The translations under genes were made by a program, and so were the position numbers. The notes beneath the pieces were generated by a model that saw nothing but the letters and a program-made list of their open reading frames with translations, searched no databases and had not been told where the DNA came from. This document shows, piece after piece, positions 3,462 to 63,330 of a DNA stretch of 64,000 nucleotides (its first letter is position 1; each line of letters opens with the position of its first letter). Source of the stretch: Mytilus galloprovincialis (taxonomy: Eukaryota); NCBI RefSeq assembly GCF_965363235.1, contig NC_134842.1, positions 34,104,757 through 34,168,756 of the forward strand. Direction: 5' to 3'.

Positions 3462-4239
3462 AATGATCAAATATTAGTTTTTATTTTTAGCTCACCTGGC
3501 CCAAAGCACTTGGTGTCCGTCGACGATCGTTGTCGTCTGTTAACTTTTACACAAATCTTCTCCTCTGAAACTCCTTAACCAAATTTAACCAATATTGGCC
3601 ACAATCATCACTAGGGTATCTAGTTTACAAAAAATTTTCTGATGATCCTGCCTGTCAACCAAGATGGCCGACATGGCCAAAAAATGAACATAGGGTAAAA
3701 TGCAGTTTTTGGCTATATCTCTGAAACTAATACATTTAGTGCAAATCTGACATTGGGTTTATATGTTCATCAAATTAAGATCTATCTGCCAACAAATTTT
3801 CAGACAAATCCAACATCCAGCTGTTGGGTTGCTGTCCCTGAATTTGTTATTTTAAGGAAATTTTGCAGTTTTTGGTTATTACCTTAGATATCATTATATT
3901 ATCTGATAATATTTAATATCTAATACTGTTAATTATGTTTTGATTTCACATGATTTACAAAGCATCAGTAAACACAGGTGAGCAACACAGGCTCTTGAGA
4001 GCCTCTAGTTAATATTGAACACAATACAGCTGCTGGTTTTGATTTGCTAGTCTTGATTTTTGGTGTATATATAATTTATTGAAGTGCTGTGATGAGCTTG
4101 TTTTCCATAGAACAAAAATTGTTGTTTGCTACAAACCAAATCCCTGCACAGACAGCATAAAAACATTTTTCCTGACTTTTTAACTGATTTTTATCCATTT
4201 GATCTATTAACAGGTACAAATGAAGAATCAAAACACAGG

Positions 4240-4760
4240 AAACAAAAATGTGTCCTCAGTACACGGATGCCCCATCCACACTATCATTTTCTATGTTCAG
4301 TGGATTGTGTAAGGGACTACATCAAAAGATCGATGTAGGATAAAAAACTTAAATCAAATAGAATGGGGGGTGGGGTTAAAATTCTGCAAGTTTTGTATAT
4401 CTAAAATCGATTTTTACATATATCCCTATTGGTAAATCAATTTTTCCCAAATTAAGTTAAGAGGAGGGGTGGGGGTCAGTGAAAAAACTATGTGAATTAG
4501 GTTTTTTATCCTACATTGAACTTTTGATGTCATCCCTAAATTGGGGAAAATCTCTAATTGGGCATCAAAATTATAAAGATCATATCATCAAGGACATGTG
4601 TATTAAGTTTCAAGTTGATTGGACTTCAACTTCATCAAAAACTACCTCAACCAAAAACTTTAACCTGAAGGGGGACAGACAAACGGACAAACAGACAGAG
4701 GGACGAACTAACGGACGTACAGACCTGAAAACATAATGCCCATAAATGGGGCAAAAAAAT
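4240..4760 (+). mobile_element. Interspersed repeat family 2 (SINE-like, about 500 bp, with a (ACAGACGG/GAACG)n microsatellite and ATAATGCCCATAAATGGGGCA tail). Other copies at ~39780-40100 (+) and ~58590-58930 (-).
   Basis: Three copies share CCACACTATCATTTTCTATGTTCAGTGGA...AAGTTTCAAGTTGATTGGAC(T/C)TCAACTTCATCAAAAACTAC...ATAATKCCCMTAARTGGGGCA. Confidence 0.7.
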
Positions 4761-5854
4761 TCAAAATATGAACATTACAGACAAGGTTTAAGTTAATATT
4801 ATCCTCTGACACCAACAACCATTGTCAAGGACTGAGACAAAAGTGAAAGTCTTTCCCTTAGGTCTAAATTTTCTGGGCTTTTGCTTGTTCATTACTTTAT
4901 TCTTGATATTTCTTATTGACATTGTAACGTTGGTACCAGATAAATCTTTTAAAGATCAACAGTACTATTATTTCCATTACACTGTATAAGAAGAGGAATA
5001 ACACAAGAAGAAGCAATTAAAACATAGAATTGTAAACCATACCTATTAAACTAGAACAAACTTAATGGCAAAAATTTGTAAACAATCAGGAATCGGATGT
5101 TTAGCAGTTGTCATTTGTTTTATAAGGTTCATAAGTGTTTCTCATTTTTTTTTAATAAAGATTGGACCGTTGGTTTTCAAGTTTGAATGGTTTACAATAG
5201 TCATTTTTGGGGCCCTTTATAGCTTGCTGTTCAGTGCTAGCCAAGGCTTTGTGTTGACGACCGTACTTTGACCTATAATGGTTTACTTTTATAAATTGTG
5301 AATCGTCTCATTGGCACTTATACCACATCTTCTTATATCTATATATATGTATTCATGCAGATGTGAAAAGTTGCACAGGGAGAACCAGAGATCTGACTTT
5401 CATCAAATTCCTAGATGATCATGGACACAAGAAACTAGATATCTAAGGGTATTATATTAGCTTAGAATTTATGATGATAACTTTTTACAAATTTTATTAT
5501 TTTCTCTTAAACTTACATAATGTTACAATATTCAACAAAATTGAAAAAATCACTTAAACAATCACAACTAAGTAAGAATTTTTACTCTTGTAATATTTTC
5601 ATGCATTTTATTATTTCAGTAATTTTGACAATAGTAGTTTTCTCTGACCATTATAAACTAATAATTTTGGATGTAACACATCTTCTGATTGGCTGACATC
5701 GTTTTGTTTATCTTATTATAGACACAATTTTGTCGTGTGACCATGACGTCATCAACGTTTTTTCATGATTTGCGCCGGTTTAAAATGGAATTTAGAATTA
5801 AATTATATTAAGAAATAACTGTAATATTTTGTCAGTCTATTCGAAATAACATAA

Positions 5855-11345: not shown

Positions 11346-12125
11346 AACTTAACCCAAAAACTTAAAAATTTTAAATTGGACATTTACCTATTATGGTCCA
11401 ATATCCAAAATCTAAATACATGGTTAGATTCAGCATATCATAGAACCCCAAGAATTGTCCTTCTTTTACTTTAAGGGTCCTTAAACTTTACAGATTGACT
11501 TCTTTCATGGTTATAGTTAGGTTAGATGTTTTAGGTTAGGGTTAGGTTTTAGGGTTAGAGCTAGTGCTAGGTTTAGGAATCAGTTAGGGTAAGGTTTGGG
11601 GTTAGGGATAGTTTAGTATAGCTCTATATGGCTTGGTACTCCTAAAGTAAAAGAAGGCCCAAGAATTCAATTTTTTATGAAATCAAATAATGTTCAATTT
11701 TAGACCCTTTAGACCTCAATGTGGACCAATTTGATAAACAGGCCCAAATATTAAAAATCTAAATACATGGTTAGATTCAACATATCAAAGAATCCCTAGA
11801 ATTCAATTTTTGTTGAAATCTAACAAATTTTAATTTGGGACCCCGATTTGGACCAACTTGAAAACTGGGCCCATAATCAAAAATCTAAGTACATGTTTAA
11901 TTTCAGCATATCAAAGAACCCAAAGAATTTGATTTTTGTTAAAATCAAACTAAGTTTAATTTTGGACCCTTTGGACCTTAATGTAGACTAACTTGAAAAC
12001 AGGACCAAATATTAGGAATCTAAATACACGGTTAGATTCGGCATATCAAAGAACCCCAATGATTCATTTTTTGATGAATTCCAATATACGACCAAAACAT
12101 TTTCAATTTTTGCGGTCGCATAAAA
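11340..12125. repeat. Satellite array, about 140-150-bp unit, about 5 copies. An inverted copy of the same satellite lies at 44250-44640.
   Basis: Repeating unit ...AATCTAAATACATGGTTAGATTCAGCATATCAAAGAACCCCAAGAATTCAATTTTTGATGAAATC...GGACCAATTTGAAAACAGGCCCAAATATTAAAA... The array ends in the TATACGACC...GGTCGCATA hairpin at 12084-12122. Confidence 0.8.
11480..11620. repeat. Degenerate interstitial telomere-like tract (TTAGGG/TTAGGTT)n
   Basis: ttaggttagatgttttaggttagggttaggttttagggttagagctagtgctaggtttaggaatcagttagggtaaggtttggggttaggg. Confidence 0.6.
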
Positions 12126-13379: not shown

Positions 13380-14128
13380 ATATATCCCATTCTTGATATG
13401 GGAGATAACTCATTATTGAATAAAAATATTTGGTCAAACTATATGGATCCATCTCATAAAGCTGCATACCTCATATCTTTTTTGGTTTATTAAATAATTA
13501 ACTCATATTTACCTTTTAACCATAGAAATAGGAGCACATCTATAAGGAGATGTCACATAAGGAGTATTTTGCACAAATACCTCTGCTTTACATGGGAGAT
13601 AACTCATATTTCACTTGAATCAACTGAAGTTTTAGCAAACTTTCATGATGGTTTTTGAAGATAAAAATTGGAATTATAATATTTTTTTATTAGTTTAGAA
13701 TTTCATGGCAAGTAAGTCTTGTGTTTTAAGCTCTTCTTTCTCTGATTAATATTGGAGAAAGAAAGAGCTAAAATCAAGGTTAGATTCACTTGATCTAAGT
13801 CAGGGGTTTACACAGTATATATTGGAGATGATACATATCTTACTGGAGCCAGCAAATAATAAAGTAAAAGTTCAAGGATCTGATGTGAATATGGGAGATT
13901 ATCCTCATTGATATAGGAGACAACTCATTTATAACTCCGCACCTTTTCTCAAAACATGTCTTATTATACAGATCTTTCCAATAGTGTTTTTCCCTCAAAT
14001 CTCATGGTTTATTACAGAAATAGTTTTTATTTAACTTGTTCCCGAAAGAAAAAAGTTTTAAGAAAAAGGTATAAAGTAATTACCAGTTATGAGTTATCTC
14101 CCATATCAAGGTCAGATAAATATTTACC
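13380..14128 (-). repeat. Intron-10 tandem array in paralog A: degenerate copies of the exon-10 3' end, splice donor and downstream TATCTCCC motif
   Basis: Repeated GATGGATCCATATAG.TTTACTCCATTTTCAGCTGGACCAAGgtaaat...TATCTCCCATATCAAG-like units, about 100-200-bp period. Same position as the arrays at 31200-31529 (B) and 62797-63330 (C). Confidence 0.7.
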
Positions 14129-21311: not shown

Positions 21312-21513
21312 CTAGCCATGGTACAAGGAATGGATACCCTGGTCCTACAGTAGGCTTTGGTGAATTAGACCTCATGACTTCTTTGATTGTATCTGGATGT
21401 GCTAGCATCACAGTTGGAAAGAATGTTGACAACCAAAACACATATATCTTCACTTTTTTCTGCACAATGAATTCTTCATGACATTTATAATGGAATTCAC
21501 TAAAATTTCCTAT
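21312..21513 (-). CDS. CYP4 paralog A exon 2
   Basis: Acceptor ttttgcag|ATAGGA. Translation IGNFSEFHYKCHEEFIVQKKVKIYVFWLSTFFPTVMLAHPDTIKEVMRSNSPKPTVGPGYPFLVPWLG. Donor G|gtatag. 202 nt. Confidence 0.78.
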
Positions 21514-21839: not shown

Positions 21840-22270
21840 ACCCTTTCAGTCCGATACTGTTTAAACCAACTGTTTGAAACTATAGTCTGAAACCTAAATG
21901 TATGGAACTGGTTTGAAACCTAAATGTATGGAATGGGTCTGAAACCTAAATGTATGAAACTGGTCAGACAGTTTGGAACTATTGTCTGAAACCTAAATGT
22001 TTGGAACTGGTCTGAAACCTAAATGTTTGGATCGGGTCAGACAATTTGGAACTATTGTCCGAAACCTAAATGTTTGGAACTGGTCTGAAACCTAGATGTT
22101 TGGAACTGGTCTGGAACCTAAATGTTTGAAACGTGTCAGACGGTTTGGAACTATTGTCTGAAACCTAAATGTTTAAAAATGGGGCTGAACCGAAATTTAT
22201 CAAACGGGCTGAAACCTGAATGTATAAAACGGGCTGAACCGAAATGTCTCAAACGGGCTGAAACCTGAAT
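21840..22270. repeat. Minisatellite, about 27-40-bp unit (CTGAAACCTAAATGTTTGGAACTGGT...)n, about 15 copies, in intron 1 of paralog A
   Basis: Read directly. Confidence 0.85.
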
Positions 22271-22369
22271 AAAACAAATGTATGGAAACTATTCAAACTG
22301 TTGTAAAACTTTCTTATGAAACTTAATAAAATAAACATGTCTATAACTGTCTGAACAACAGGGCAGCAC

Positions 22370-30054: not shown

Positions 30055-30160
30055 TTAGGAACTTCTTTGTTTAAAGTTGACCATGATACCAGTTTTGGCT
30101 CTCATTACAACCTCAAGAAATGGTATCACTGTATGGTCTGGATCCAAGGAGATTTCAAAC
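30055..30160 (-). CDS. CYP4 paralog B exon 12 (C-terminus + stop)
   Basis: Acceptor ctttttaaag|GTTTGAAATC. Translation FEISLDPDHTVIPFLEVVMRAKTGIMVNFKQRSS. TAA stop at 30055-30057. Exon lengths sum to 1515 nt = 504 aa + stop. Confidence 0.8.
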
Positions 30161-30821
30161 CTTTAAAAAGAATAAAATTATACCAAGATTTAGTGATGTG
30201 AATCAATAACATAATTCAGATTGATGATTAAAGAAAATACATCAACTATTTTGATCATAAATTGTTAAAATGTTTTCCTTTTCTATGGTCTCACTAACAA
30301 TCAAACCAGAATGTTGACTGTAAAATGAGAAATTATTGTGTGCATTTGTTACTGTCATTTCATCATTTTAGACTAAAATGTGATTTTAATTTTTGTAATA
30401 TTGAGAAAATTTCGAGTTTAATTCAAATAAAAAATTAAAAAATGCGAGTTTTAATTATTGTGGTTATAAATAACCCTGTCACATTTTTCGCAGTGATAAA
30501 AACATCACAACAATTCCTTAATTTACAGTAAGTGAAACTTAGTGATTTGAAAAGAGGTTTCTGTGCATTTTTTTTATCATTGATTAAATGTTGAGTTTAA
30601 TTTGTGATGTAGGGTTGCTGTCTTACTGATCATTGATTCTTATCCAACATTGATTTTCATTCATTTTGAAATTCAATGAAAAAAAAAATCTTTTGTTTTA
30701 TAAGTTATGCAATTGTATCATTGAACATGAAATTGGTGAAATAGTTAATTGGATAATCTGTTAGCAAAAAGGGAAGGGTATATATTCACAAGAATCTGTA
30801 TATACAACTTAAATGGCATAC

Positions 30822-30887
30822 CTTTCTACAATTCTTGCTATCAAAACTTTCTCTTCATTCTGTGCAAAATTTAATCCAATACAATTT
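30822..30887 (-). CDS. CYP4 paralog B exon 11 (heme Cys loop)
   Basis: Acceptor tcttcag|AAATTGTATTGG. Translation (R)NCIGLNFAQNEEKVLIARIVER. Donor AAG|gtatgc. 66 nt. Confidence 0.85.
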
Positions 30888-31199
30888 CTGAAGAAAAAAA
30901 ATATGTATAAGAAGCTAATACAGATACAATCACAAGGAAATTTCTAAATTTGTCTTTCTTTCTATAAAAAAATTACACTAGCTTAAGTTGCCTTGATGTA
31001 CATTTCAAATATGTTCTGATGAGAGCAAGCCAGTTCTAAAATTAATATGAATCTGGTTTAATATCCTCATTTCAGCAGAAAAGTGAGTAATTTGTAGAGA
31101 TGCTTGAGAAACCATTTTATAAGGAAAGACCATGTATGTCTGTCTGCGAAAAAAGGTGTAAAACTAAATGTGTTTCTCTCTGTATTAGGGTTTGTCTTA

Positions 31200-31529
31200 A
31201 TGATGTTCATCTCCCTGCATTATAAGGGAGATAACTGGTTCCATAAAAATGAAGTAGAACTATGAATCTGTTTCAAGGTGATCTAGTCCCTGCAATATAG
31301 GGGAGATAATTCATATTTAACTTGGTCCAGGAGAACATGAAGTTAAACTAAAAGGATCCATCTCATGAAGTTAAAAAATGTCTCCCTCAAATCTCCCTGC
31401 AGCAAAGGGGGATAATACATATTTTCCTTGGTCCAACAGAAAATAGAGTAAAACTAGAAGGATTCATCTCATAAATGTGTGGCTCCTTTAAATCTTTCTG
31501 CTAAACAAGGGAGATACTTCACATTTACC
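31200..31529 (-). repeat. Intron-10 tandem array in paralog B (degenerate exon-10-3'/donor copies, about 105-bp period, about 4 copies)
   Basis: Repeated ATGGATCC(T/A)T..AGTTTTAC...CTGGACCAAGgtaaat.. and GGGAGATAA motifs immediately downstream of true exon 10. Confidence 0.7.
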
Positions 31530-31611
31530 TTGGTCCAGCTGAAAATGGAGTAAAGCTGTAAGGATCCATCTCATGATGTTTGTCTCCCTCAAATCTCTCT
31601 GGTTTAAACTC
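31529..31611 (-). CDS. CYP4 paralog B exon 10 (PERF)
   Basis: Acceptor ttttcag|GAGTTTAAACC. Translation EFKPERFEGDKHHEMDPYSFTPFSAGPR. Donor AAG|gtaaat. 83 nt. Confidence 0.85.
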
Positions 31612-32291
31612 CTGAAAATCAAATATACAACTTTTATAGAAACTAGAAACTAATGGGGTTCATTTCCATGGCCCTGACTCAATTAGGAAAAATTGTTCAC
31701 AATCAATGGGTCAGGATGACCATAGCAATCGATCATAGTCTCTGTACTTAGCTGTTTCTTTTAAATATTTGTCCATCTAGACAGGAAACAACTATTGGAC
31801 TGGACTTTGATCAGTATTTTTTAAAGTCCTTTTTAAATAGTCTGCAAATGAATAACTTTAGCAACAACTAATTAATTTTGCCAGAACATTATTCAAACTT
31901 ATCGTATTAGAAAGGTTTTGAAGAAACTATAAGCATTGACATATTTAAAAAAAAAGTTAGTGTAGGTGCACAAGTGTGAAACTTTACAATTTTGCATTTA
32001 CAATTAAGATTTTAAAATAATAAAACAAGTTTCATCAGTTACATTATGTTTGCCTTGAATATTTTGAAAAATAACATGAAGAGAAATAATTAATTTGAGG
32101 ATGCTTAACAAAAATGGACATATTATTTCAGATATTTTACATCTAGTTTGAGCTTCATCAGAAATAAGGAAAAACTACCTTTTGTGGAAAAACTTCAACC
32201 CTGACAGTAAGAGTGTAGTATCTAAACATAAAAATACATCTATTTTTTCTGCACGGACAGAAAATCATCAAATATATTTAATTTAACTTAC

Positions 32292-32487
32292 TTTTGGATT
32301 TTCCCAAACATCAGGATGGTTGTGACAATGATAAATACCAAAGTCTACCATAACTCCAGCAGGGATGTCATACCCATCCAAAACAATGGGTTCATCTAAT
32401 GTCCTGTTTGTGACTGGTACCGGTGTATGTAATCTCATTACTTCCTTCAGGAAACAGGTCAGGTATTTCAACTTTGGTAGATCTTCA
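32292..32487 (-). CDS. CYP4 paralog B exon 9 (K-helix)
   Basis: Acceptor tgtatag|TGAAGATC. Translation EDLPKLKYLTCFLKEVMRLHTPVPVTNRTLDEPIVLDGYDIPAGVMVDFGIYHCHNHPDVWENPK. Donor AAA|gtaagt. 196 nt. Overlaps track ORF 32283..32531. Confidence 0.85.
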
Positions 32488-32773
32488 CTATACATGGAAA
32501 AATAAAAAAATATAATTTGTATGTGCAGCAAGTATTAACTTCTAATTTTGATGTTTATGTCTCGATAAGATGCATTACTATGATATGTGCTCTCCATGAC
32601 AACACTAAAAAAATCTTTTTTAGACTGCATCTGTTCTTTTACCGGTTTGCATCAGTGCCTCATGATCATTGCCATGATTGCTGTTACAAGCTAGTATCAA
32701 TATAAATAAAATACCACTGCTTCAGTACAAGTTAATTTGGTGAATTATACATTATTAATCCATACTGGCATAC

Positions 32774-32897
32774 CTTTCAATAGTTCCTTTGCTGCCTGTA
32801 ACTTCTTTGACCTCTCTGTAAACTTTTTCCTGTATATCTTTGTATTTACCTAAACAATACATACTCCAACTCAACACACTGGATGTTGTGTCATGGC
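32774..32897 (-). CDS. CYP4 paralog B exon 8 (GHDTTS)
   Basis: Acceptor tttcag|GCCATGAC. Translation (G)HDTTSSVLSWSMYCLGKYKDIQEKVYREVKEVTGSKGTIE(S). Donor AG|gtatgc. 124 nt. Overlaps track ORF 32755..33006. Confidence 0.8.
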
Positions 32898-32929
32898 CTG
32901 AAATACCAAAACAGATATAACAACATGAA

Positions 32930-33340
32930 TATAAAAAATAAGATGTGGTATGATTGCCAATGAGACAACTATCCACAAAAGACCAAAATGACACAGACAT
33001 TAACAACTATAGGTCAACGTACGGCCTTCAACAATGAGCAAAGCCAATACCGCATAGTCAGCTATAAAAGGCCCCGATAAGACAAGGTGAAACAATTCAA
33101 ACGAGAAAACTAACGGCCTTATTTATGTAAAAAAAAATGAACGAAAAACAAATATGTAACACATAAACAAACGACAACCACTGAATTACAGGCTCCTGAC
33201 TTGGGACAGGCACATACAAAATTAATGTGGCGGGGTTAAACATGTTAGTGGGATCCCCTCCCCCTAACCTGGGACAGTGGTATAACAGTACAACATAAGA
33301 AGGAACTATAAAAATCAGTTGAAAAAGGCCTATGAAGACC
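32930..33340 (+). mobile_element. Interspersed repeat family 1, near full-length copy. Starts AGATGTGGTATGATTGCCAATGAGACAACT and ends ...CTGAATTACAGGCTCCTGACTTGGGACAGGCAC... Many other full or partial copies, e.g. 5160-5330(-), 8040-8100(-), 18370-18545(-), 26750-26830(+), 27690-27960(+), 28760-28900(+), 35630-35690(-), 35830-35940(+), 40990-41270(-), 42030-42075(-), 47510-47590(+), 57600-57730(+), 62380-62420(+), 63700-64000(+).
   Basis: The recurrent core GATGTGGTATGATTGCCAATGAGACAAC and its reverse complement GTTGTCTCATTGGCAATCATACCACATC are seen repeatedly on both strands, in introns and intergenic DNA. Confidence 0.8.
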
Positions 33341-34288
33341 ATTATTAGATATATTTCATTGATTGATATTAGGCTTTTCCTCTTTACTTTTGTATATTGT
33401 AAATATATATGTAGATAGGAACCTGTATTACTAGTTCTACAACATTATCTACTTTTTATAAAGTTTGATGTTAGGTGAATGTGGAAGGAGAAAAGTTACC
33501 GCAATCTGTACAAGTGTAATGTTTTATGGTATAATAAAACATTTGGGATGTAAATGTACCACTATCAATGGATCAACTTGATGGTTCTATGCAAATTATG
33601 CTTAAGTGCCAGTCTTTGTAAGAATCAGGCAATTTAGGTAAAAATTAAAACATGATTTGAAAAAACCCACCGAGCTAATCATTCTATTTAATACTAACCA
33701 TCATCCTGAGTTAAAAATAATTGGTCTTTCGTTTGTGTGTGTCTTGTAATATCAAATAACTTGGTTAGAAAATTGGTTAGAATGATAGCAAATTACAGAG
33801 TTATCTCCCCTTATTCGTTAATTTCTAGTGCATTTCAACCAAATTTTATCTTCTGTTACCAGAACAGAAAATGGAAATGAATGTTATTTTTGTGCATAAC
33901 TACATATTATGAACTGAAATCATTGTCAAATAGGGTGGTTTTTTTTGCTCATGTTTTCACCACTGCCTAATTCTTAGGCAGACTGGCACTTAATATTTCT
34001 ATGCATATATTCATTGTAATAAAGATATTTGAAAGGCATTGTAGTAATTTTCAAAATGCTATAAAATTGACACTTAGAATCAAGGCACGGTAATTGCCTT
34101 AATATATTAAAGACTAGAAGCCAAATTATCCATGGAAGTCAGCATGCCCAAAGAAGGAAAAATTGATATAGAATAAAATCAAAATATAATTTTAAGTGTT
34201 TTCTTTAGTGAACCCTGTGTGATCTTAGTAATCTGATATTATGCAAACTACATTGAAATATTTTGTAAGCAAAATCTACTACATGTAC

Positions 34289-34421
34289 CAGCAAAAAGGA
34301 AGGTATCAACTTCAGCTCTGATTTCATCATCCGTCAGTCCTATGCCATTATCATCTTTGGCTGTTATTAATATATCCAGGAAGTCCAAGTGTTTCTTTGC
34401 CTCTGTTTCTGTACTTTCATT
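34289..34421 (-). CDS. CYP4 paralog B exon 7 (I-helix first half)
   Basis: Acceptor ttttag|AATGAAAGT. Translation NESTETEAKKHLDFLDILITAKDDNGIGLTDDEIRAEVDTFLFAG. Donor G|gtacat. 133 nt. Confidence 0.8.
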
Positions 34422-34855
34422 CTAAAAAGATGCATATAATGTCTACAAATGGCATTATTTCTTATTTCACAGCAGGTTAAGCAATAAAAGCTTGCTTTTT
34501 TGTAAGCAGAGCATACTCTGACACAGTATAATCATATCATGAAGTTGTGTTATTTTTGTACATTATGTACTGGTGTTTATATTAAATTATTACAGAGTAA
34601 AGTGGATTCATTTATTTATGTCGGAAAAGATTTTTGTGGAATGAGGAAAATTTACACTTTCGTGCATATTTCAATTTTTGGTTTTCCTGAAGTCAGCATA
34701 CAAGTCTTTACAAAATTTGTAATTCATTGAATATTTGAATTCCCGGTCCACCTGTATCCTTGAAAATTTCGAAAATTGGTAGTCAACAAAAAATAATGAA
34801 TCCTTAGTAATTAACTTTATACTCCTATACACAGTTAGTACACGATATAACATAC

Positions 34856-34982
34856 CAACTCTTTTCGTCTTTTAGATATTATGTCTTTTGAGAATTTATG
34901 AACATATTCACAAATCTTGAAAAATTCTTTACCATCAGCAGTAAAATATCTGTATATGAACTCTGCATAATGATGAAAATGG
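34856..34982 (-). CDS. CYP4 paralog B exon 6
   Basis: Acceptor ctttgcag|CCATTTTC. Translation HFHHYAEFIYRYFTADGKEFFKICEYVHKFSKDIISKRRKEL. Donor TTG|gtatgt. 127 nt. Confidence 0.78.
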
Positions 34983-35096
34983 CTGCAAAGAAAATATCAA
35001 ATGAACCTACTTATTCATAATGGGTAAAATGATCTTACAAGACAGTATTAAAGGGAGACAATCATATATATTCATTTATGGCAGACAATACAGCAA

Positions 35097-35390
35097 CAGC
35101 CGACCGTGCAAGGGCTGTATAGCCAGTCAAAGTCATTTAGACCGTGCAAGGGCTGTATAGCCAGTCAAGGTCATTTAGACCGTGAAAGGGCTGTATAGCC
35201 AGTCAAGGTCATTTAAACCGTGCAAGGGCTGTATAGCCAGTCAAGGTCATTTAAACCGTGCAAGGGCTGTATAGCCAGTCAAGGTCATTTAAACCGTGCA
35301 AGGGCTGTATAGCCAGTCAAGGTCATTTAAACCGTGCAAGGGCTGTATAGCCAGTCAAGGTCATTTAAAACTTCGATTATCATGCAGCAA
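35097..35390. repeat. 42-bp minisatellite (GACCGTGCAAGGGCTGTATAGCCAGTCAAGGTCATTTAAAC)n, about 7 copies, in intron 5 of paralog B
   Basis: Read directly. Confidence 0.85.
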
Positions 35391-36538
35391 CACAAGTGTT
35401 GGGGTTATATACTATGCAAATCAATGTGTGAGGTCAATAATATGAAAATCAAGTTATAAACACTTTTTTAATTTTTTTTAATTTTGATCAAACAATTGTA
35501 TTTCCCTGAGAACAAAAGAACATAGGCCAATACCATAGATAGACACATTATGTGGTATAGGTTTTGCTCATTATTGCAGATTGTACAGTAATGTATAGCA
35601 TCTACATAGATTAATTCACCTCTATTGATCTATGGTAGAGAGTTATCTCATTGGCAATCACACCACATCTTCTTATTTTTAAGCATTCTTGTTCACAATG
35701 TCTTTAATGTGCTTCTCTTTCAGGCTTTATGGTACTATAGGGGGTATATTTTATCACCATATACCTGTATTTTTATCTCAAAGTGTAAGCACTGTTAGAG
35801 GGTTAAAGGTATATGAAAAGCAAGGAGATGTTGTATGATTGGTCATAAGACAACTATCAACCATAGTTAAAAGTGTAGATGTAAACAACTATAGGTCAGT
35901 ATATGACCTTCAATAATGAGCAAACCCATTCTGTATAGTCTGACAGCTATACCAGAGTTCTAGAAATCTATTACCCCTGGCGGTCCTTGAAAGAATATAT
36001 GCTGGTCCTCACTATTATTGCAAAATACCAAAATTGTGTTGGTCCTATGCAAAATGTTGGTAGTCAAAACCTTCGTATCACCACTTTTCAGGAACTCTGC
36101 TATAAAAGGATCAGACATGACTGAATGAGAAATATAGCTAACAAGAAAACCAATAACCTGATTTATATTTAAAGTTATGTGGCAAATCTGATATAAAAAT
36201 CTATTCCATACCATGAAACATACTTCATCATGTATCATACCTCAAGACTAAGAGATTGACATGAAGGGAGGTGTGTCAATCCCTAACATTTAGGATTACT
36301 AAATATACAAAGTCTCTAAATAATTTTTAACAAATTTAAGGGGTGTTCCTGAATTGCTGTTCCCCTACATGTCTTTTTTGTTTGTTTGATTGTATTGTTG
36401 TGATACTGTCTCGATGACATTAACCCCAAATATTCATGTTTATCATAGTACAAACGTGATGCAAATGACATAAACAAAGCTACTTATACTATATACATGT
36501 ACCATGAAGTAAAAGTATCAAGCTTCTGATAAACTTAC

Positions 36539-36601
36539 AAACTTCTTTTATCAATCAGATGTCCCAGACGATTTACTGCTGTCACATACGGATGGCTGTC
36601 T
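36539..36601 (-). CDS. CYP4 paralog B exon 5
   Basis: Acceptor ttttcag|AGACAGCC. Translation DSHPYVTAVNRLGHLIDKRSL. Donor TT|gtaagt. 63 nt. Confidence 0.72.
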
Positions 36602-37382
36602 CTGAAAAATTACAAAATTATAAACAATTAGTAGGAGATTAATGTTTCAAGAGTCAACATAACATATTTGGATCCTGTGAATTCACTGTTTCAGATTCAA
36701 AAGCATTCAGGGAAAATGTTTAAAAGCGTTCATCAAAATGTAGTCATTGGTTAAAAAGTCCTTAACAATAGAGATTCATACAATGGTGTCATGTTTCATT
36801 TTGGAGTACAAACAATGAAACAACCCATAGTCCTTTAGATTCTGTAACAGTGAATTGTAATATATTTATCAATATAAATAAAAACATTAATAAAGAATTG
36901 ATTGTACGTTTCCTACTAAGACTGAACTTTTACAAATTAGTTGTGTCCTTTATCTGAATGAACGATTTAAAAAATTGAACTTCAATTTAGGTTAATCATA
37001 CAACAAAGTTATCTGTTTATCAATCTATTTCAGAATTGTTAACATGTTCTCTCATAGGCTATTAGCACATTGTACATCTTGGAAGAACTTTTCAGGGTTT
37101 ACTGTCATTTCACATTTGTATATATCTAGAACAATGAAGTTTTTTTTGGTGAGGTTCCTTTTACTAAATCTTAAGTTATCTGAGTGTTTAATGTTTTGTT
37201 AGTCATGTTTGTTTTTAGGCAATTTGATTACTTACTTCCCTTTGGGATTTGGTTCATGTATCTTCTCTCTCTTTTTCAAACAAAAATGGCAATATTATAT
37301 CCAATACATAGTTTCATATAAAATTAAAAAGTTTGACCCCAAATTGAACCTTTTACTTTTCTCAAATCTTAAGTACCACCTA

Positions 37383-37507
37383 CCCCACAAGTTGAACATT
37401 TCCTTTGTAACCAAGTGAACATTGTAACAAGGTATCTAGAGTAGCCATACTAGCAGGCTTAAATATATCTAAATATTTTCCATCTTTACTTCCACTGGCT
37501 AGCTTAT
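37383..37507 (-). CDS. CYP4 paralog B exon 4
   Basis: Acceptor ttaacag|GATAAGCT. Translation DKLASGSKDGKYLDIFKPASMATLDTLLQCSLGYKGNVQLVG. Donor GG|gtaggt. 125 nt. Confidence 0.78.
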
Positions 37508-38298
37508 CCTGTTAAAAATAAAATAAAGAAAACTATCAATTAAAAACTTCATTCATTTCATATTTATATATTACATTTGTATCAATATAAATGGAAAATT
37601 TAATCACTATTGGCAATATATCATTTTCAATACTGCGCAGTAAATCTTTTACTAAATTTTTAGCATTAACTTGTAAATGTACATTAAGTTTTATATCTTT
37701 TAGTCTTGTAACCGTATTCATTGATCCAGACTAAAAATGATACCTAACTAAAACTAACAAATCTGTAGGTTCTTAAGAATATAGTTTGTTCAACTGGTGC
37801 ATGTCGATCTTAAACTTTTTATGTGTTAAGATGATTATATACTTCCTTTAACAATCTCTTTATAACTATATTATATAATTGTTAAAAATGACCAAAACTG
37901 CACTTTTAGAGTATCTTCATATCATCACCTATGGATAATGACAAGCTGATTTGACAATCAGGTGGGATAAAAACTATGTAAAGACTTTTTGACAAATCGG
38001 TTATCTGAAGTTTTATTTCAGCTTGTGGTTCAACATACTTACAAATAAAATTATATATGGTGAACCAACACCTGAAATGATTGTGTGGAAGAGTAAAATG
38101 CAGGTGGATACCTTAACCTATTCACAGTTGTCTTTTACCAAGATAATAGATATAACGATATTTAAGATAACAACACCTTCAACATAGCACTAGCCATCTG
38201 GCAACATGCACCCTGTTTCACTCAAAACTAGCAAGACTTTTTCACAGAATCACAGTGTGAATATACTATAGTGGAAACTAGATGTTACCATTACTTAC

Positions 38299-38426
38299 CA
38301 ATAATACATCAGCCACTTCATTGTAGAGCTTAAAATACCCTGTCAGTATATTAAAGTGGAAAGCTGGTGTCAACAATCGGCGATTTCTCTCCCATTTTGG
38401 TCCATTAGCTATTAACAAGCTTTGAC
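38299..38426 (-). CDS. CYP4 paralog B exon 3
   Basis: Acceptor ttttaag|GTCAAAGC. Translation [42 protein letters not shown]. Donor TTG|gtaagt. 128 nt. Confidence 0.82.
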
Positions 38427-38489
38427 CTTAAAAATGATAACAATTAATTCAATAATTAAATATCTGTGCTGTGCTTCATATCATTTTAA

Positions 38490-38698
38490 GGGGGTAGACC
38501 TAGGTTAAGGGAAATTACTCTTAAAATCATCAGTATGTTTGTGTCAACCATTTTCATAAATATATTCTAAGCTTCTAGGATACATAGGCTATTTCCAATC
38601 TGTTTCAGGTAAATGCTTAAAATACATTGAGGAAACTTGACATTCAGAAACACAAGAGTGATTTAAAGAGTTATCTCCCTGAACCAAGGTCTACCCCC
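38490..38698. mobile_element. MITE of about 210 bp with TIR TAAAGGGGGTAGACC (in intron 2 of B)
   Basis: TTAAGGGGGTAGACCTAGGTTAAGGGAAATTACTCTT...AAGAGTTATCTCCCTGAACCAAGGTCTACCCCCTTTAA. Confidence 0.65.
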
Positions 38699-39232
38699 TT
38701 TAAAAAATCTCTTGTGAATGTGAGACAAAAGAGGATTCATAACCTGCCCATAAATAATGCTTCAATATGAGATTTTACCAAGAGAATGTGAATATAGATC
38801 AATATAGGCACGGGGAAGACCTATAATGTCTATTAAGTGTATCATGTGGTAAAATGATAGTTAACTTTGAGTCTGATTATGCTTGAAGATGATGTGAATT
38901 TAAAATCAGACATTATAAATTTATTGTTAATTCAGCAATCATTGCATGCATTTATAATTGCGATTTTTGTAGAATGGACAAAAATGCAAGTAATTTCGAT
39001 TTCAGGAAACTTTGCATACAGATATATGTATCAGATGTCAGAATGTGACTTCTCACTATTGCAATACTCACTCAGTCCCATAATAAGCATGAATAAAACC
39101 TCACAATCATTTTCAATTTATAGTATTTATACAAAAACTCTTGTGCTCACCTTTTTTTCATGATATTGTTGACCTGAAAATCAATGTATTTCATTGCAAC
39201 TGATGTTATAAGTTTATCTAATCACAACTTAC

Positions 39233-39431
39233 CTAGCCATGGAACAAGAAAAGGATATCCTGGACCTATCGTTGTCTTTGGAGCATTAGATCTCATTACA
39301 ACTTTAATGGTGTCTGGATGTGCCAGGATAATAATTGGTTGGAATCGAAACAACCAAAACACATATAGTTTATCTCCCTTCCCTATACACTCCTCGTGCA
39401 TCCTAAACATCAGGTCACTGAAATCTTTTAT
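39233..39431 (-). CDS. CYP4 paralog B exon 2
   Basis: Acceptor gttttcag|ATAAAAGAT. Translation IKDFSDLMFRMHEECIGKGDKLYVFWLFRFQPIIILAHPDTIKVVMRSNAPKTTIGPGYPFLVPWLG. Donor G|gtaagt. 199 nt. Confidence 0.8.
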
Positions 39432-40282
39432 CTGAAAACACATTTATGTATATTATAACAACAAGGACAACAACAGCAACACCACTTGATTTTCAGAGGG
39501 TTACATGGTTAGTTTTTACTAATCTTCCCCAAGCCCTCATCAATTAAAACTAATTTCTATAACAAATCTAGCTGCTACATGCAGCTGCTTAAAGCTTGTG
39601 ATTAACAGTGAAGCAGGCACCTTTAAAATTTCTGAATTGAATGTCTTATCAACCACATTTAGGTGTGTATTCACTACCAGCTTTTTTACCCAAGACATCA
39701 TGTGGTTGGTAGAGGGAATGTGTATCATACACAACTATCATACATCACTGAAGACTCTGCAGTCGTTTTTTTTTTAAATAAAAAAAACCAAGAATGTGTC
39801 CATAGAACATGGATGCCCCACTCACACTATCATTTTCTATGTTCAGTGGACCCTGAAATTGGGGTTAAAACTCTAATTTGGCATAACGATTAGAAAGATA
39901 ATATCATAGGGAACATGTGTACTAAGTTTCAAGTTGATTGGACCTCAACTTCATCAAAAACTACATGTACCTTAACTAAATACTTTATCCTAAAGTGGGA
40001 CAGACGGAGGAACAGATGAATGGTCGGACAATTGAACTAAGGAATGAACGAATAGACGAACAAATGGATGCACAGACCAAAAAACATAATTCCCCTAAGT
40101 GGGGCATAAAAATCTTTATAGCTTTAAAAATCAGTTTTCTCATATGACTTTAAAAGATCTTATCAAGCTAAACTTTAAGGAAAACATTCCATCAAAATTT
40201 TACTGATAATTAAATTCTAATTATTGTTTGCATAAAACTTTCAACTGGTATCAAGAGTTTTTTTTCTGTACTGATTTTGATT

Positions 40283-40420
40283 GCACATGTACATGAGGAG
40301 TGTATAGGGAAGGGAGATAAACTATATGTGTTTTGGTTGTTTTGATTACAACCAATTATTATATTGGCACTAATCCAGATACCATTAAAGTTGTGATGTG
40401 ATCTAATAATTTTGTAACTT
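40283..40420 (+). pseudogene. Inverted, degenerate duplicate of paralog B exon 2 (pseudo-exon) inside B intron 1
   Basis: About 125 nt at roughly 90% identity to the sense sequence of B exon 2 (CACGAGGAGTGTATAGGGAAGGGAGATAAACTATATGTGTTTTGG...CCATTAAAGTTGT), on the opposite strand. In-frame stops. Confidence 0.7.
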
Positions 40421-40572
40421 TTTTTATTTGACTGATCATGATTGAAAAAGGGTAGTGTTTAAGTTATGTAAGTTTGGTGAAAATAAGGCTTATATCAATT
40501 ATCCCTAAATAAAGGAAGATTTACATAAACATGATAAAAAGCTATATAAATCCAACATGAAATAATTATTAC

Positions 40573-40737
40573 CTGAAAAATATTTCCAAAGAACCAATGT
40601 GGCTTTGGACCTGGTAATTTTGAAACAGACGTTATCACAAGTCTCAGCCATTTCAAATATTTAAATATTCTAATAGCAGCATAGGTCAACACTAAGGTCA
40701 CAGCACCGACTACAAATGTCCATGTTAATGTACCCAT
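40573..40737 (-). CDS. CYP4-family P450 paralog B, exon 1 of 12
   Basis: ATG at 40735-40737. Translation MGTLTWTFVVGAVTLVLTYAAIRIFKYLKWLRLVITSVSKLPGPKPHWFFGNIFQ. Donor CAG|gtaata. 165 nt. Confidence 0.8.
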
Positions 40738-43529: not shown

Positions 43530-44640
43530 TTTTTTTGTTCTTTTTATACGACCGCAAAATTTGAAAAATTTTTCGTCGTATATTGCTATCACGTTGGCGT
43601 CGTCGTCTGCGTCGTCGTCGTCGTCCGAATACTTTTAGTTTTCGCACTCTAACTTTAGTAAAACTGAATAGAAATCTATGAAATTTTAACACAAGGTTTA
43701 TGACCACAAAAGGAAGGTTGGGATTGATTTTGGGAGTTTTGGTCCCAACATTTTAGAAATTAGGGGCCAAAAAGGGTCCAAATAAGCATTTTCTTGGTTT
43801 TCGCACTATAACTTTAGTTTAAGTTAATAGAAATCTATGAAATTTTGACACAAAGTTTATGACCACAAAAGAAAGGTTGGGATTGATTTTGGGAGTTTTG
43901 GTTCCAACAGTTTAGGAATTAGGGGCCAAAAAAGGGCCCAAATAAGCATTATTCTTGGTTTTTGCACAATAACTTTAGTTTAAGTAAATAGAAATCAATG
44001 AAATTTAAACACAATGTTTATGACCACAAAAGGAAGGTTGGTATTGATTTTGGGAGTTGAGGTCCCAACAGTTTAGGAATTAGGGGCCAAAAAGGGACCC
44101 AAATAAGCATTTTTCTTGGTTTTCGCACCATAACTTTAGTATAAGTAAATAGAAATGTATGAAATTTAAACACAAGGTTTATGACCATAAAAGGAAGGTT
44201 GGTATTGATTTTGGGAGTTTTGGTCCCAACAGTTTAGGAATAAAGGGCCCAAAGGGTTCAAAATTAAACTTTGTTTGATTTCATCAAAAATTGAATAATT
44301 GGGGTTCTTTGATATGCTGAATCTAAAAATGTACTTAGATTTTTGATTATTGGCCCAGTTTTCAAGTTGGTCCAAATCGGGGTCCAAAATTAAACTTTGT
44401 TTGATTTCATCAAAAATTGAATGATTGGGGTTCTTTGATATGCCAAATCTAACTGTGTATGTAGATTCTTAATTGTTGGTCCCGTTTTAAAATTGGTCTA
44501 CATTAAAGTCCAAAGGGTCCAAAATTAAACTAAGTTTGATTTTAACAAAAATTGAATTCTTGGGCCTCTTTGATATGCTGAATCTAAACATGTACTTAGA
44601 TTTTTGATTATGGGCCCAGTTTTCAAGTTGGTCCAAATCA
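43530..44640. repeat. Composite satellite region: a (TCG)n microsatellite plus a hairpin at 43545-43630; an about 180-bp-unit array x4 at 43640-44250; and the inverted copy of the 11340-12125 satellite at 44250-44640
   Basis: TTTCGCACTMTAACTTTAGT...GGTCCCAACAKTTTAGRAATTAGGGGCCAAAAAGGGTCCAAATAAGCATT repeats. Followed by GGGTCCAAAATTAAACTTTGTTTGATTTCATCAAAAATTGAAT..., which is the reverse complement of the left-hand satellite. Confidence 0.8.
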
Positions 44641-44870
44641 GGATCCAAATTATTATATTAAGTATTGTGCAATAGCAAGAAATTTTCAATTGCTCAGTAT
44701 TCAGCAATAGCAAGAAATCTTCAATTGCACAGTATTGTGCAATAGCAAGAAATCTTCAATTGCACAGTATTGTGCAATAGCAAATATTTTCAATTGCACA
44801 GTATTGCACAATAGCAAGAAATATCTAATTGCACAATATTGTGCAATAGCAAGAAATTCCAATTGGATTT
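44640..44870. repeat. About 38-bp minisatellite with an internal palindrome (ATTGCACAGTATTGTGCAATAGCAAGAAATCTTCA)n x6
   Basis: Read directly; TTGCACA..TGTGCAA palindromic cores. Confidence 0.85.
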
Positions 44871-51388: not shown

Positions 51389-51590
51389 ATTGAATCCTTT
51401 GATGGATTTTTCAAAAAGATGTATAAGGTATATGTGGAAGATAAAAGATGTAAAGCTTTCGTCTACTGGTTATTTGTTGTACGACCTTTACTGACCTTGA
51501 CCCATCCAGACACTATAAAGATTGTAATGAAGTCAACTGCACCAAAGTCTAGAAAAGGGGCAGGAATTGCCTTTATGTTACCATGGATTG
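51389..51590 (+). CDS. CYP4 paralog C exon 2
   Basis: Acceptor ttttttgaag|ATTGAATCC. Translation IESFDGFFKKMYKVYVEDKRCKAFVYWLFVVRPLLTLTHPDTIKIVMKSTAPKSRKGAGIAFMLPWIG. Donor G|gtgagt. 202 nt. Matches track ORF 51383..51607. Confidence 0.8.
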
Positions 51591-58437: not shown

Positions 58438-59046
58438 GTAAGTAAAAGGCTTAATTAATTGATAATGATGATGGATGTTTGCTTAACATCCAGCGGAAAA
58501 TTGATATGCATATTCATGACGAGAACATGTTAATGTAATATAAATATTAACCCTGTTTTTAAGTAGACCAACATGCTAGCTCACAAGGTAACAGTCTGTA
58601 GGAAGACTACATTTTTATGCCCCATTTATTATGCCCCATTTATGGGCATTATGTTTTCTGGTCTGTGCGTCCGTTCGTCCGTTCGTTCGTTCGTTCGTCC
58701 GTTCGTTCGTTCGTCCGTCTGTCCCGCTTCAGGTTAAAGTTTTTGGTCGAGGTAGTTTTTGATGAAGTTGAAGTCTAATCAACTTGAAACTTAGTACATA
58801 TGTTCTGTATGATATGATCTTTCTAATTTTAATTCCAAATTAGAGATTTAACCCCATTTTCACGGTCCACTGAACATAGAAAATGATAGTGCGGATGGGG
58901 CATCCGTGTACTGGGGACACATTCTTGTTATTGTATGTCTTGTCACCTTACCAGAACACAATATTTTGACTCAGATGCTGACTAGCCTTTGCTCTTACTC
59001 CTTAATGCCACGTGATAATAATAGAAGCAGCAAATACCAATTTAAA

Positions 59047-62796: not shown

Positions 62797-63330
62797 GTAA
62801 ATGTGAAGTATCTCCCCTGAAATGTAAAACAATTAACGAGACAAATATCGCAAGATTTTAATTCAGACAGACTTCCTAGGTAGATTCTTATAGTTGTACT
62901 CTATTTCTGCTTGACAAAGATAAATTTGAGTTATCTCCCCTGAAATGTAAAACAATTAAGGAGAGACAAATATCGTAAGATTTTAATTGAGACAGATTCC
63001 TAGGTAGATTCTTAAAGTTGTACTCTATTTTCTGCTTGAAAAATGTAAATTTGTGTTGTCTCCCCTTTCCTACAGAAACTTTCAATCCAGAAAGACTTCG
63101 TCAGTTGATCCTTATAACTTTACTCAATTTTCTGCTTGACCAAGGTAACTATTAATTATCTCTAATTATGCAGGAAGACTAATTGAAACAAACACAGTTG
63201 ATCCTTATAGTTTTACTCCATTTTCTGGTTGATTGAGATGAACATAAATTATCTCCCCTATAATGCAGAGGATCCTAATAGGTTTACTCCATTTTCAGTT
63301 GGACCATGGTAAATACAAATTATCCACCAT
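62797..63330 (+). repeat. Intron-10 tandem array in paralog C: about 5 copies of an about 105-bp unit. Each unit carries a degenerate DPYSFTPFSAGP exon-10 tail, a GTAAAT donor, a TATCTCCCCTGAAATG motif and an acceptor-like TTCTTATAG.
   Basis: Unit starts at about 62797, 62895, 62998, 63095 and 63200, e.g. GATCCTTATAGTTTTACTCCATTTTCTGGTTGA.. and GGTTTACTCCATTTTCAGTTGGACCATGgtaaat. Confidence 0.8.

Follow-up and report, generated by a model that had tools for sequence, protein, structure and literature searches.

One question raised by paralog B of the cytochrome P450 cluster described here is why part of a coding exon should be present a second time, inverted, in the intron immediately upstream of it, and whether the hairpin that these two sequences could form in the pre-mRNA has any consequence for the gene. 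The stretch analysed, referred to below as the window, comprises 64,000 nucleotides of Mytilus galloprovincialis DNA with three P450 paralogs (A, B and C), and the gene models used are the exons conserved among the three. The assembled protein of paralog B contains a P450 domain (Pfam PF00067, E=7e-74), has CYP4B1 as its closest solved structure (PDB, E=2e-74), and is identical to the NCBI entry "cytochrome P450 4B1-like [Mytilus galloprovincialis]." Judged from its sequence, the host gene is a member of the CYP4 family, and orthologs of it are present in M. trossulus, M. edulis, M. californianus, and M. coruscus. The relevant parts of the cluster are as follows.

About 21313-21513, minus strand: exon 2 of paralog A
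30061-40737, minus strand: paralog B
40573-40737, minus strand: coding exon 1 of B (ATG at 40737; MGTLTW...FGNIFQ; donor GT at 40572-40571)
39432-40572, minus strand: first coding intron of B, 1141 nt, host of the inverted copy
39233-39431, minus strand: coding exon 2 of B, 199 nt (acceptor AG at 39433-39432, donor GT at 39232-39231)
About 51407-51589, plus strand: exon 2 of paralog C

The borders of exons 1 and 2 of paralog B match those of spliced mRNAs. An mRNA contig also reveals a non-coding 5′-UTR exon approximately 1.65 kb upstream of coding exon 1 (positions 2129-2302 of the M. trossulus locus, L005), and the exon numbering therefore moves by one relative to the sequence-only reading that first drew attention to the copy. 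That reading had placed the copy in "intron 1"; it does lie between coding exons 1 and 2, and its host is the first coding intron.

In a blastn comparison within the 64-kb window, positions 40292-40407 of the plus strand align with the core of exon 2 (39285-39398) over 116 columns at 91.4% identity, with eight mismatches and one 2-nt gap (E=2e-42). A repeat search resolved the match into two adjoining inverted pairs, 39320-39398/40292-40370 (79 nt, 94%) and 39285-39319/40373-40407 (35 nt, 91%), and the sharp ends of the alignment (39398-39285 versus 40292-40407) were unchanged under strict or permissive local-alignment scoring. The two arms are thus defined.

40292-40407, plus strand: inverted copy of the exon-2 core, a pseudo-exon fragment and the 5′ arm of the predicted helix
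39285-39398, minus strand: exon arm, 114 nt of coding exon 2 (HEECIGKGDKLYVFW...TIKVVMRSN), predicted to pair with the copy

The exon arm represents 57% of exon 2, beginning 33 nt past the 3′ splice site and stopping 52 nt short of the exon-2 donor, while 165 nt separate the 5′ splice site and the copy. The copy has exon sense on the plus strand and is consequently antisense in the minus-strand pre-mRNA; it possesses an in-frame stop and a 2-nt insertion. The sequence-only reading had described a degenerate, opposite-strand copy within the same primary transcript as exon 2, about 125 nt long and about 90% identical. This is borne out, its figures being near the true 114-116 nt and 91%, and the arms align on opposite strands at an identity well clear of the 70% below which, or in the same-strand orientation, no hairpin could form. 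The range that it gave, 40283-40420, contains the real copy together with 9 and 13 nt of non-homologous filler at its two ends, and its distance of roughly 850 nt, correct in placing the copy upstream, becomes 893 nt when measured between the arms.

The donor of the copy is apparent from a four-way alignment, in which the copy possesses all of the B-specific states and none of those of A or C. Since it is, in addition, 91% identical to exon 2 of B and 73% identical to that of A, we conclude that it derives from B's own exon 2, as had been surmised. No comparable fragment was found in A or C, which agrees with the earlier statement that neither paralog has an equivalent. Protein-level matches ("LFRFQPV") in intron 1 of paralog A were considered and discarded; they are spurious because of a tandem array in that intron, the element being a short tandem repeat with DNA-level similarity not above chance. 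A homolog search with the exon-2 peptide returned only a read-through ORF of paralog A, metagenome contigs scanned with a 35-nt core gave no match, and none of the ten ORFs around the exon and the loop between the arms had an exact database record. A permissive Rfam search and a tRNA scan of the first coding intron returned nothing credible.

Part of the loop is occupied by an interspersed repeat.

39786-40113, no strand assigned: interspersed repeat inside the loop, with further copies at about 4240-4760 and 58626-58927

With a length of about 325 nt, the repeat occurs three times in the window, including the copy in the hairpin loop and another within an intron of paralog C. The loop is about 330 nt longer on its account; the repeat is not present in the introns of the outgroups and has neither a tRNA-like head nor an Rfam match.

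Other duplications are scattered through the cluster. Exon 10 of B, which encodes the heme-binding FTPFSAGPR region (31301-31601), is followed by two decayed same-strand tandem pseudo-exons with a period of 102 and about 75-80% identity, which carry stop codons and have lost their GT donors. In C (63107-63313) and A (13433-13489), too, the corresponding exon has comparable fragments downstream of it on the same strand, and the exon-10 duplication may therefore predate the paralogs. An intron of paralog C contains a direct duplication of approximately 545 nt (53634-54178/55538-56081; 96-100% identity, 1.9 kb apart), which appears to be a recent segmental duplicate. Minisatellite or tandem arrays are found in introns and intergenic DNA at 21866-22300, 35089-35378, 43657-44280, 44250-44650, and 11390-12090; the one at 11.4-12.1 kb is an inverted relative of that at 44.25-44.65 kb.

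The distribution of the copy among mussels was established by alignment of homologous loci. The insertion, with identical junctions and identical filler sequences, is present in the window, in an ENA contig, likewise of M. galloprovincialis type, that is 99.0% identical to the window over 2.8 kb (L002), in the M. edulis assembly GCA_905397895.1 (L009), and in M. trossulus (L005), from which we conclude that it arose in a single event. It is absent from M. californianus (L006), M. coruscus (L007), and the allele of the M. edulis reference GCA_963676685.2 (L008). Polarisation of the differences between the arms by paralogs A and C alone was ambiguous and was settled by the orthologs: the copy retains ancestral GAT and GTG at sites where all carrier exons have since changed, and the copies likewise retain ancestral ATAT where the exon has moved on. 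Because the copy keeps these ancestral states, the insertion must predate the common ancestor of the carrier haplotypes, which belong to three species, and postdate their split from the non-carrier lineages; its age would be a few million years.

The reference allele of M. edulis deserves separate description. Its identity to the window around exons 1-2 is no more than about 89%, a divergence on the level of M. californianus or M. coruscus, whose DTMKVV/KTMIG residues it also has. Exon 1 is at positions 2001-2165 of this locus and exon 2 at 4056-4253, directly followed (4259-4327) by a same-strand partial duplicate of the 3′-end of exon 2. Since L009, from the same species, has a window-like allele, this suggests that the L008-type allele is an ancient trans-specific or introgressed haplotype. 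The Mytilus genome is characterized by extreme haplotype divergence and presence/absence variation (PMC7653742). Two short contigs of other relatives, Logan SRR23320467 (L003) and ENA ERZ27283219 (L004), possess a homologous exon 1, with 82% and 73% amino-acid identity, respectively. No inverted exon-2 fragment was found in the first coding intron (approximately 470 nt) of the former, a more distant homolog for which only 94 nt of exon 2 are available.

The insert itself measures approximately 135 nt and consists of the exon-derived fragment (114-116 nt) bordered by an 8-nt and an 11-nt filler, the whole lying between direct repeats of about 26 nt.

40258-40283, plus strand: left flanking direct repeat, about 26 nt, a putative target-site duplication
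40284-40291, plus strand: 8-nt filler CACATGTA separating the left repeat from the fragment, identical in all four haplotypes
40408-40418, plus strand: 11-nt filler AATTTTGTAAC separating the fragment from the right repeat, common to all haplotypes
40419-40444, plus strand: right flanking direct repeat, about 26 nt

The flanking repeats are identical at 20 of 26 positions (77%), a match attained by 1.5% of 3000 random placements in the same window, mostly inside tandem arrays (empirical p≈0.015). They show T-runs at the start on the plus strand and A-runs at the end on the minus strand. At the empty site of the outgroups the direct repeat is a single copy. Alignment of the window with M. coruscus and M. 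californianus extends from exon 1 to about 118 nt into the intron (approximately 40455) and resumes past the second repeat. In silico excision of the insert and one repeat renders the window collinear with both outgroups to within 1-2 nt, leaving 45 versus 46 nt between shared anchors. This restored collinearity identifies the empty site in the two species and supports duplication of the target, though the duplication is only 77% identical and the resemblance to the outgroup site is modest. No terminal inverted repeats were found around the insert, no poly(A) was present at either of its ends (CACATGTA and AATTTTGTAAC) in either orientation, and no second copy of the 135-nt unit was detected in the window or any fetched locus. 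Junction microhomology, or similarity between flank and exon, was not above the null expectation (p≈0.11).

The capacity of the two arms to pair was assessed by folding a 1401-nt segment of the pre-mRNA; these are equilibrium predictions that take no account of co-transcriptional folding, bound proteins, or helicases. The MFE and centroid structures each contain the arm-arm helix, whose 104 arm-arm pairs have on average a probability of 0.99, and the longest perfect run in the window duplex is 48 bp. The earlier prediction of a long intramolecular dsRNA that includes coding sequence of exon 2 is in this respect upheld by thermodynamic modeling. The computed free energies are as follows.

Window arms, duplex: −160 kcal/mol
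Shuffled arm (300 shuffles), duplex: −42 ± 4 kcal/mol
Other segments of the same intron: −49 kcal/mol
Window arms, each folded alone: −14.5 and −19.7 kcal/mol
Own arms of L009 (M. edulis), duplex: −183 kcal/mol (five mismatches, no indel; the most intact helix)
L002 copy with the window exon, duplex: −142 kcal/mol
Larger fragment of M. trossulus, duplex: −125 kcal/mol

If formed, an imperfect duplex of about 114 bp would loop out the region of the branch point and the 3′ splice site, the latter being situated inside the 893-nt loop at 33 nt from the helix. Because the helix is extremely stable in silico, and most intact in L009, a biological effect is physically plausible.

Comparison of haplotypes points the other way. 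Between the window and L009 the copy has diverged at 3 of 114 positions (2.6%), the intron flanks at 26 of 975 (2.7%), and exon 2 at 2 of 199 (1.0%). Nine positions vary across the three haplotypes for which both arms are known, four on the exon side and five on the copy side; eight of the changes create a mismatch and one a G·U pair, none is matched by a change on the other side, and all nine lineage-specific substitutions thus weaken the pairing. In the window, all five of the transition differences between the arms result in A·C in the sense RNA, with G·U arising only in an antisense RNA. The copy has, moreover, been damaged in a different way in each lineage: by a 2-nt insertion in the window, by a T-run in place of TTTTGGTTGTTTTG in L002, and by a 3-nt deletion and a 201-nt MITE-like insertion in M. 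trossulus, where the element (L005 4734-4934) cuts the copy into pieces of 98 and 24 nt. From the rate equal to that of the flanks, the lack of compensatory changes, the lineage-specific damage, and the other decayed exon fragments in the cluster, we conclude that the copy has drifted as neutral intron DNA and is probably a neutral relic, bearing in mind that such tests have little power when three or four haplotypes are compared, the substitutions number 3 against 26, and the structure has had too little time to accumulate covariation.

Two further observations concern these loci. The M. trossulus locus has additional lineage-specific insertions at about 4206-4578 and 5244-5787. The differences between the window and L002 are concentrated around the copy (40211-40373), the rest of the 2.8 kb being nearly identical; they include a 7-nt indel near 40256 and, within the copy, four G>T changes and three extra T residues that make up the T-run, which could be due to slippage in a T-rich tract or to an assembly effect.

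Two Logan mRNA contigs of M. trossulus-like origin show exact joins of exons 1-2 and 2-3, and since exon 2 is spliced normally the gene evidently tolerates the insert; these mRNAs come from a lineage in which the copy is already split, and an assembly consensus hides minor isoforms and editing below about 50%. Relative to the M. trossulus genome there are 12 mismatches of mixed types in 2255 nt, and no cluster of A>G changes was seen in the assembled M. trossulus-like consensus. The sole A>G falls in the exon arm, at a position occupied by G in the outgroups, in the other type-1 lineages, and in every copy, and is therefore most simply regarded as a SNP. The suggestion that the structure influences splicing or editing of exon 2 accordingly gains nothing from these consensus mRNAs, with their normal joins and a single A>G among 12 differences. 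The wider claim of a functional consequence is likewise unsupported by a copy that diverges as fast as its intron, shows no compensatory change, and is broken in some lineages.

How did the copy arise? That it is an assembly artefact, such as a chimeric or fold-back read, is scarcely conceivable: library chimeras can give inverted duplications, but the arms here differ at eight sites and by one indel, and three further independent assemblies have junctions identical to those of the window, making four from three species. The most likely origin, judging from the anatomy of the insertion, is a template switch during replication or repair. The first coding intron of this CYP4B1-like gene would have gained approximately 135 nt in an ancestor of one of the haplotype lineages of the M. 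edulis complex, 114 nt of the insert being an inverted copy of exon-2 sequence situated less than 1 kb from it, and about 26 nt of the target would have been duplicated. The nascent strand may have switched to an opposite-strand template behind the fork or break, copied about 114 nt, and then returned about 26 nt behind its point of departure, in the manner of FoSTeS/MMBIR or synthesis-dependent end-joining. A template switch fits best because the donor is short, near, inverted, and retained, both junctions carry filler, and the flanks are duplicated; with no microhomology found at the junctions, it is a probable rather than a proven origin. Other routes are improbable overall, among them LINE-mediated retroposition of B RNA, capture by a DNA transposon or Helitron, and the end-joining of an extrachromosomal piece at a staggered break. 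A staggered break would suit the flanking duplication of about 26 nt and end-joining the filler at both junctions, and the fragment consists of exon sequence only, devoid of intron. Against these stand the close, inverted donor in cis, which favors local template switching, and an insert unit that is unrepeated in the window and in each of the fetched loci. A LINE-mediated (TPRT) retrocopy was rejected for want of a poly(A) tail, and the repeat does not begin at an A-rich nick site; Pack-MULE or Helitron-like capture is not indicated by a unit that is single copy in the loci examined, has no flanking TIRs, and is bordered by a 26-nt duplication, which is too long for DNA transposons. We therefore consider it probable that the locus represents a templated insertion, inverted and lineage-specific, for which exon 2 of the gene itself served as donor and which has since drifted as a neutral intron relic.

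Whether the duplex has nonetheless been put to use is a separate matter. As a cis-regulatory hairpin, the copy could act like an editing-site complementary sequence (ECS) or a long-range splicing helix, directing A-to-I recoding or slowing or skipping exon 2; skipping would shift the frame, exon 2 being 199 nt, and down-tune a detoxification P450 in carriers. The stability of the predicted duplex, with its 48-bp perfect run and pairing probability of 0.99, the position of the 3′ splice site in the loop, and the persistence of the copy for millions of years in three species all speak for such a role, as do the ADAR-like genes of this species (five gene models are listed for M. galloprovincialis; PMC6651903), the definition of ADAR sites by exon-intron duplexes (PMC1920255), and the association of long-range pairings with pre-mRNA processing (PMC8052449). 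We nevertheless regard it as unlikely, since the copy evolves at the neutral rate without compensation, each new substitution weakens the pairing, M. trossulus has a disrupted and L002 a degraded version of it, it is missing from a co-occurring M. edulis allele and from the outgroups, whose gene is intact, and the available mRNAs include exon 2 constitutively and lack an editing cluster. Lower still do we rate the chance that the hairpin or the excised intron would give rise to siRNA-like RNAs, or act in trans on B mRNA and, more weakly, on that of paralog A, to which it is 73% identical. In its favor, the feature is an inverted gene-fragment duplicate with near-perfect complementarity to its parent, in a duplex long enough for Dicer-type processing; yet one arm is a functional exon separated by an 893-nt loop rather than part of a compact independent hairpin, no Rfam match was found, and the evolution is neutral. 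With a real duplex potential and ADARs reported in the species, some promiscuous editing at a low level, or an influence on splicing kinetics, is plausible; any such editing or splicing delay would most likely be incidental and low-level and not a selected function.

Comparison with known systems leads to the same assessment. Templated inverted insertions generated by replication or repair template switching, fold-back, or synthesis-dependent end joining have been described (PMC11724301, PMC5120786, PMC6902434), and the mussel insertion resembles them in its nearby, retained cis donor, its inverted orientation, its non-templated filler bases at the junctions, and its duplicated target. Its length of 114 nt exceeds the 5-34 bp that are typical of inverted insertions at yeast breaks and falls far short of human DUP-TRP/INV-DUP events, and no junctional microhomology was found. 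The ECSs of the GluA2 Q/R and R/G sites and the Gabra-3 I/M site (PMC1920255, PMC3479170, PMC5654063) share with the copy the property of being intronic stretches complementary to an exon of the same pre-mRNA, such that a duplex is possible only before splicing, and this intron-exon base pairing is found here in silico. ECSs are, however, conserved, usually shorter, imperfect, and bound to specific edited adenosines, whereas the mussel copy is young, a straight copy of an exon, neutral, and haplotype-specific, with neither the element nor its pairing conserved and no consensus-level editing seen in the M. trossulus-like mRNAs. Long-range structures linked to splicing, known as conserved complementary regions (PMC8052449) and from Drosophila (PMC2724269), are similar insofar as splice signals could be looped out between complementary boxes that lie hundreds of nucleotides from each other. 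They are defined by conservation and compensatory substitutions, neither of which is seen in the mussel copy, and exon 2 is constitutively included in the mRNAs available.

Drosophila hpRNAs and plant proto-miRNAs are young loci born by inverted duplication of their target genes. The likeness lies in an inverted duplicate of a coding fragment capable of forming near-perfect dsRNA with respect to the parent gene. Such loci possess two dedicated arms in a compact non-coding transcript that yields small RNAs, whereas one arm of the mussel structure is a working exon beyond a long loop, and no compact, dedicated hairpin is present. The feature represents a further example of kinds already known rather than a kind of its own.

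For the biology of these mussels the significance of the locus depends on whether the predicted duplex matters in carriers. As it stands, the locus is a cleanly dated case of exon-complementary intronic sequence arising in one step; unless effects in carriers can be measured, it counts as a neutral structural variant of the ordinary sort, in a genome of extreme haplotype divergence (PMC7653742). There is a slim chance that the insertion represents an editing or regulatory element of very recent birth that is still polymorphic, the duplex in carriers recruiting ADAR or delaying the splicing of exon 2. Allele-specific recoding or dosage of a xenobiotic-metabolising CYP4 would then be expected in carriers such as the nearly intact L009 haplotype of M. 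edulis, and with non-carrier alleles segregating in the same complex the locus would constitute a natural before/after experiment on ECS origin. Because carrier and non-carrier alleles coexist, the functional question is directly testable, and measurable effects of the duplex in carriers would amount to witnessing the birth of an ECS-like element, which is normally seen only after long conservation.
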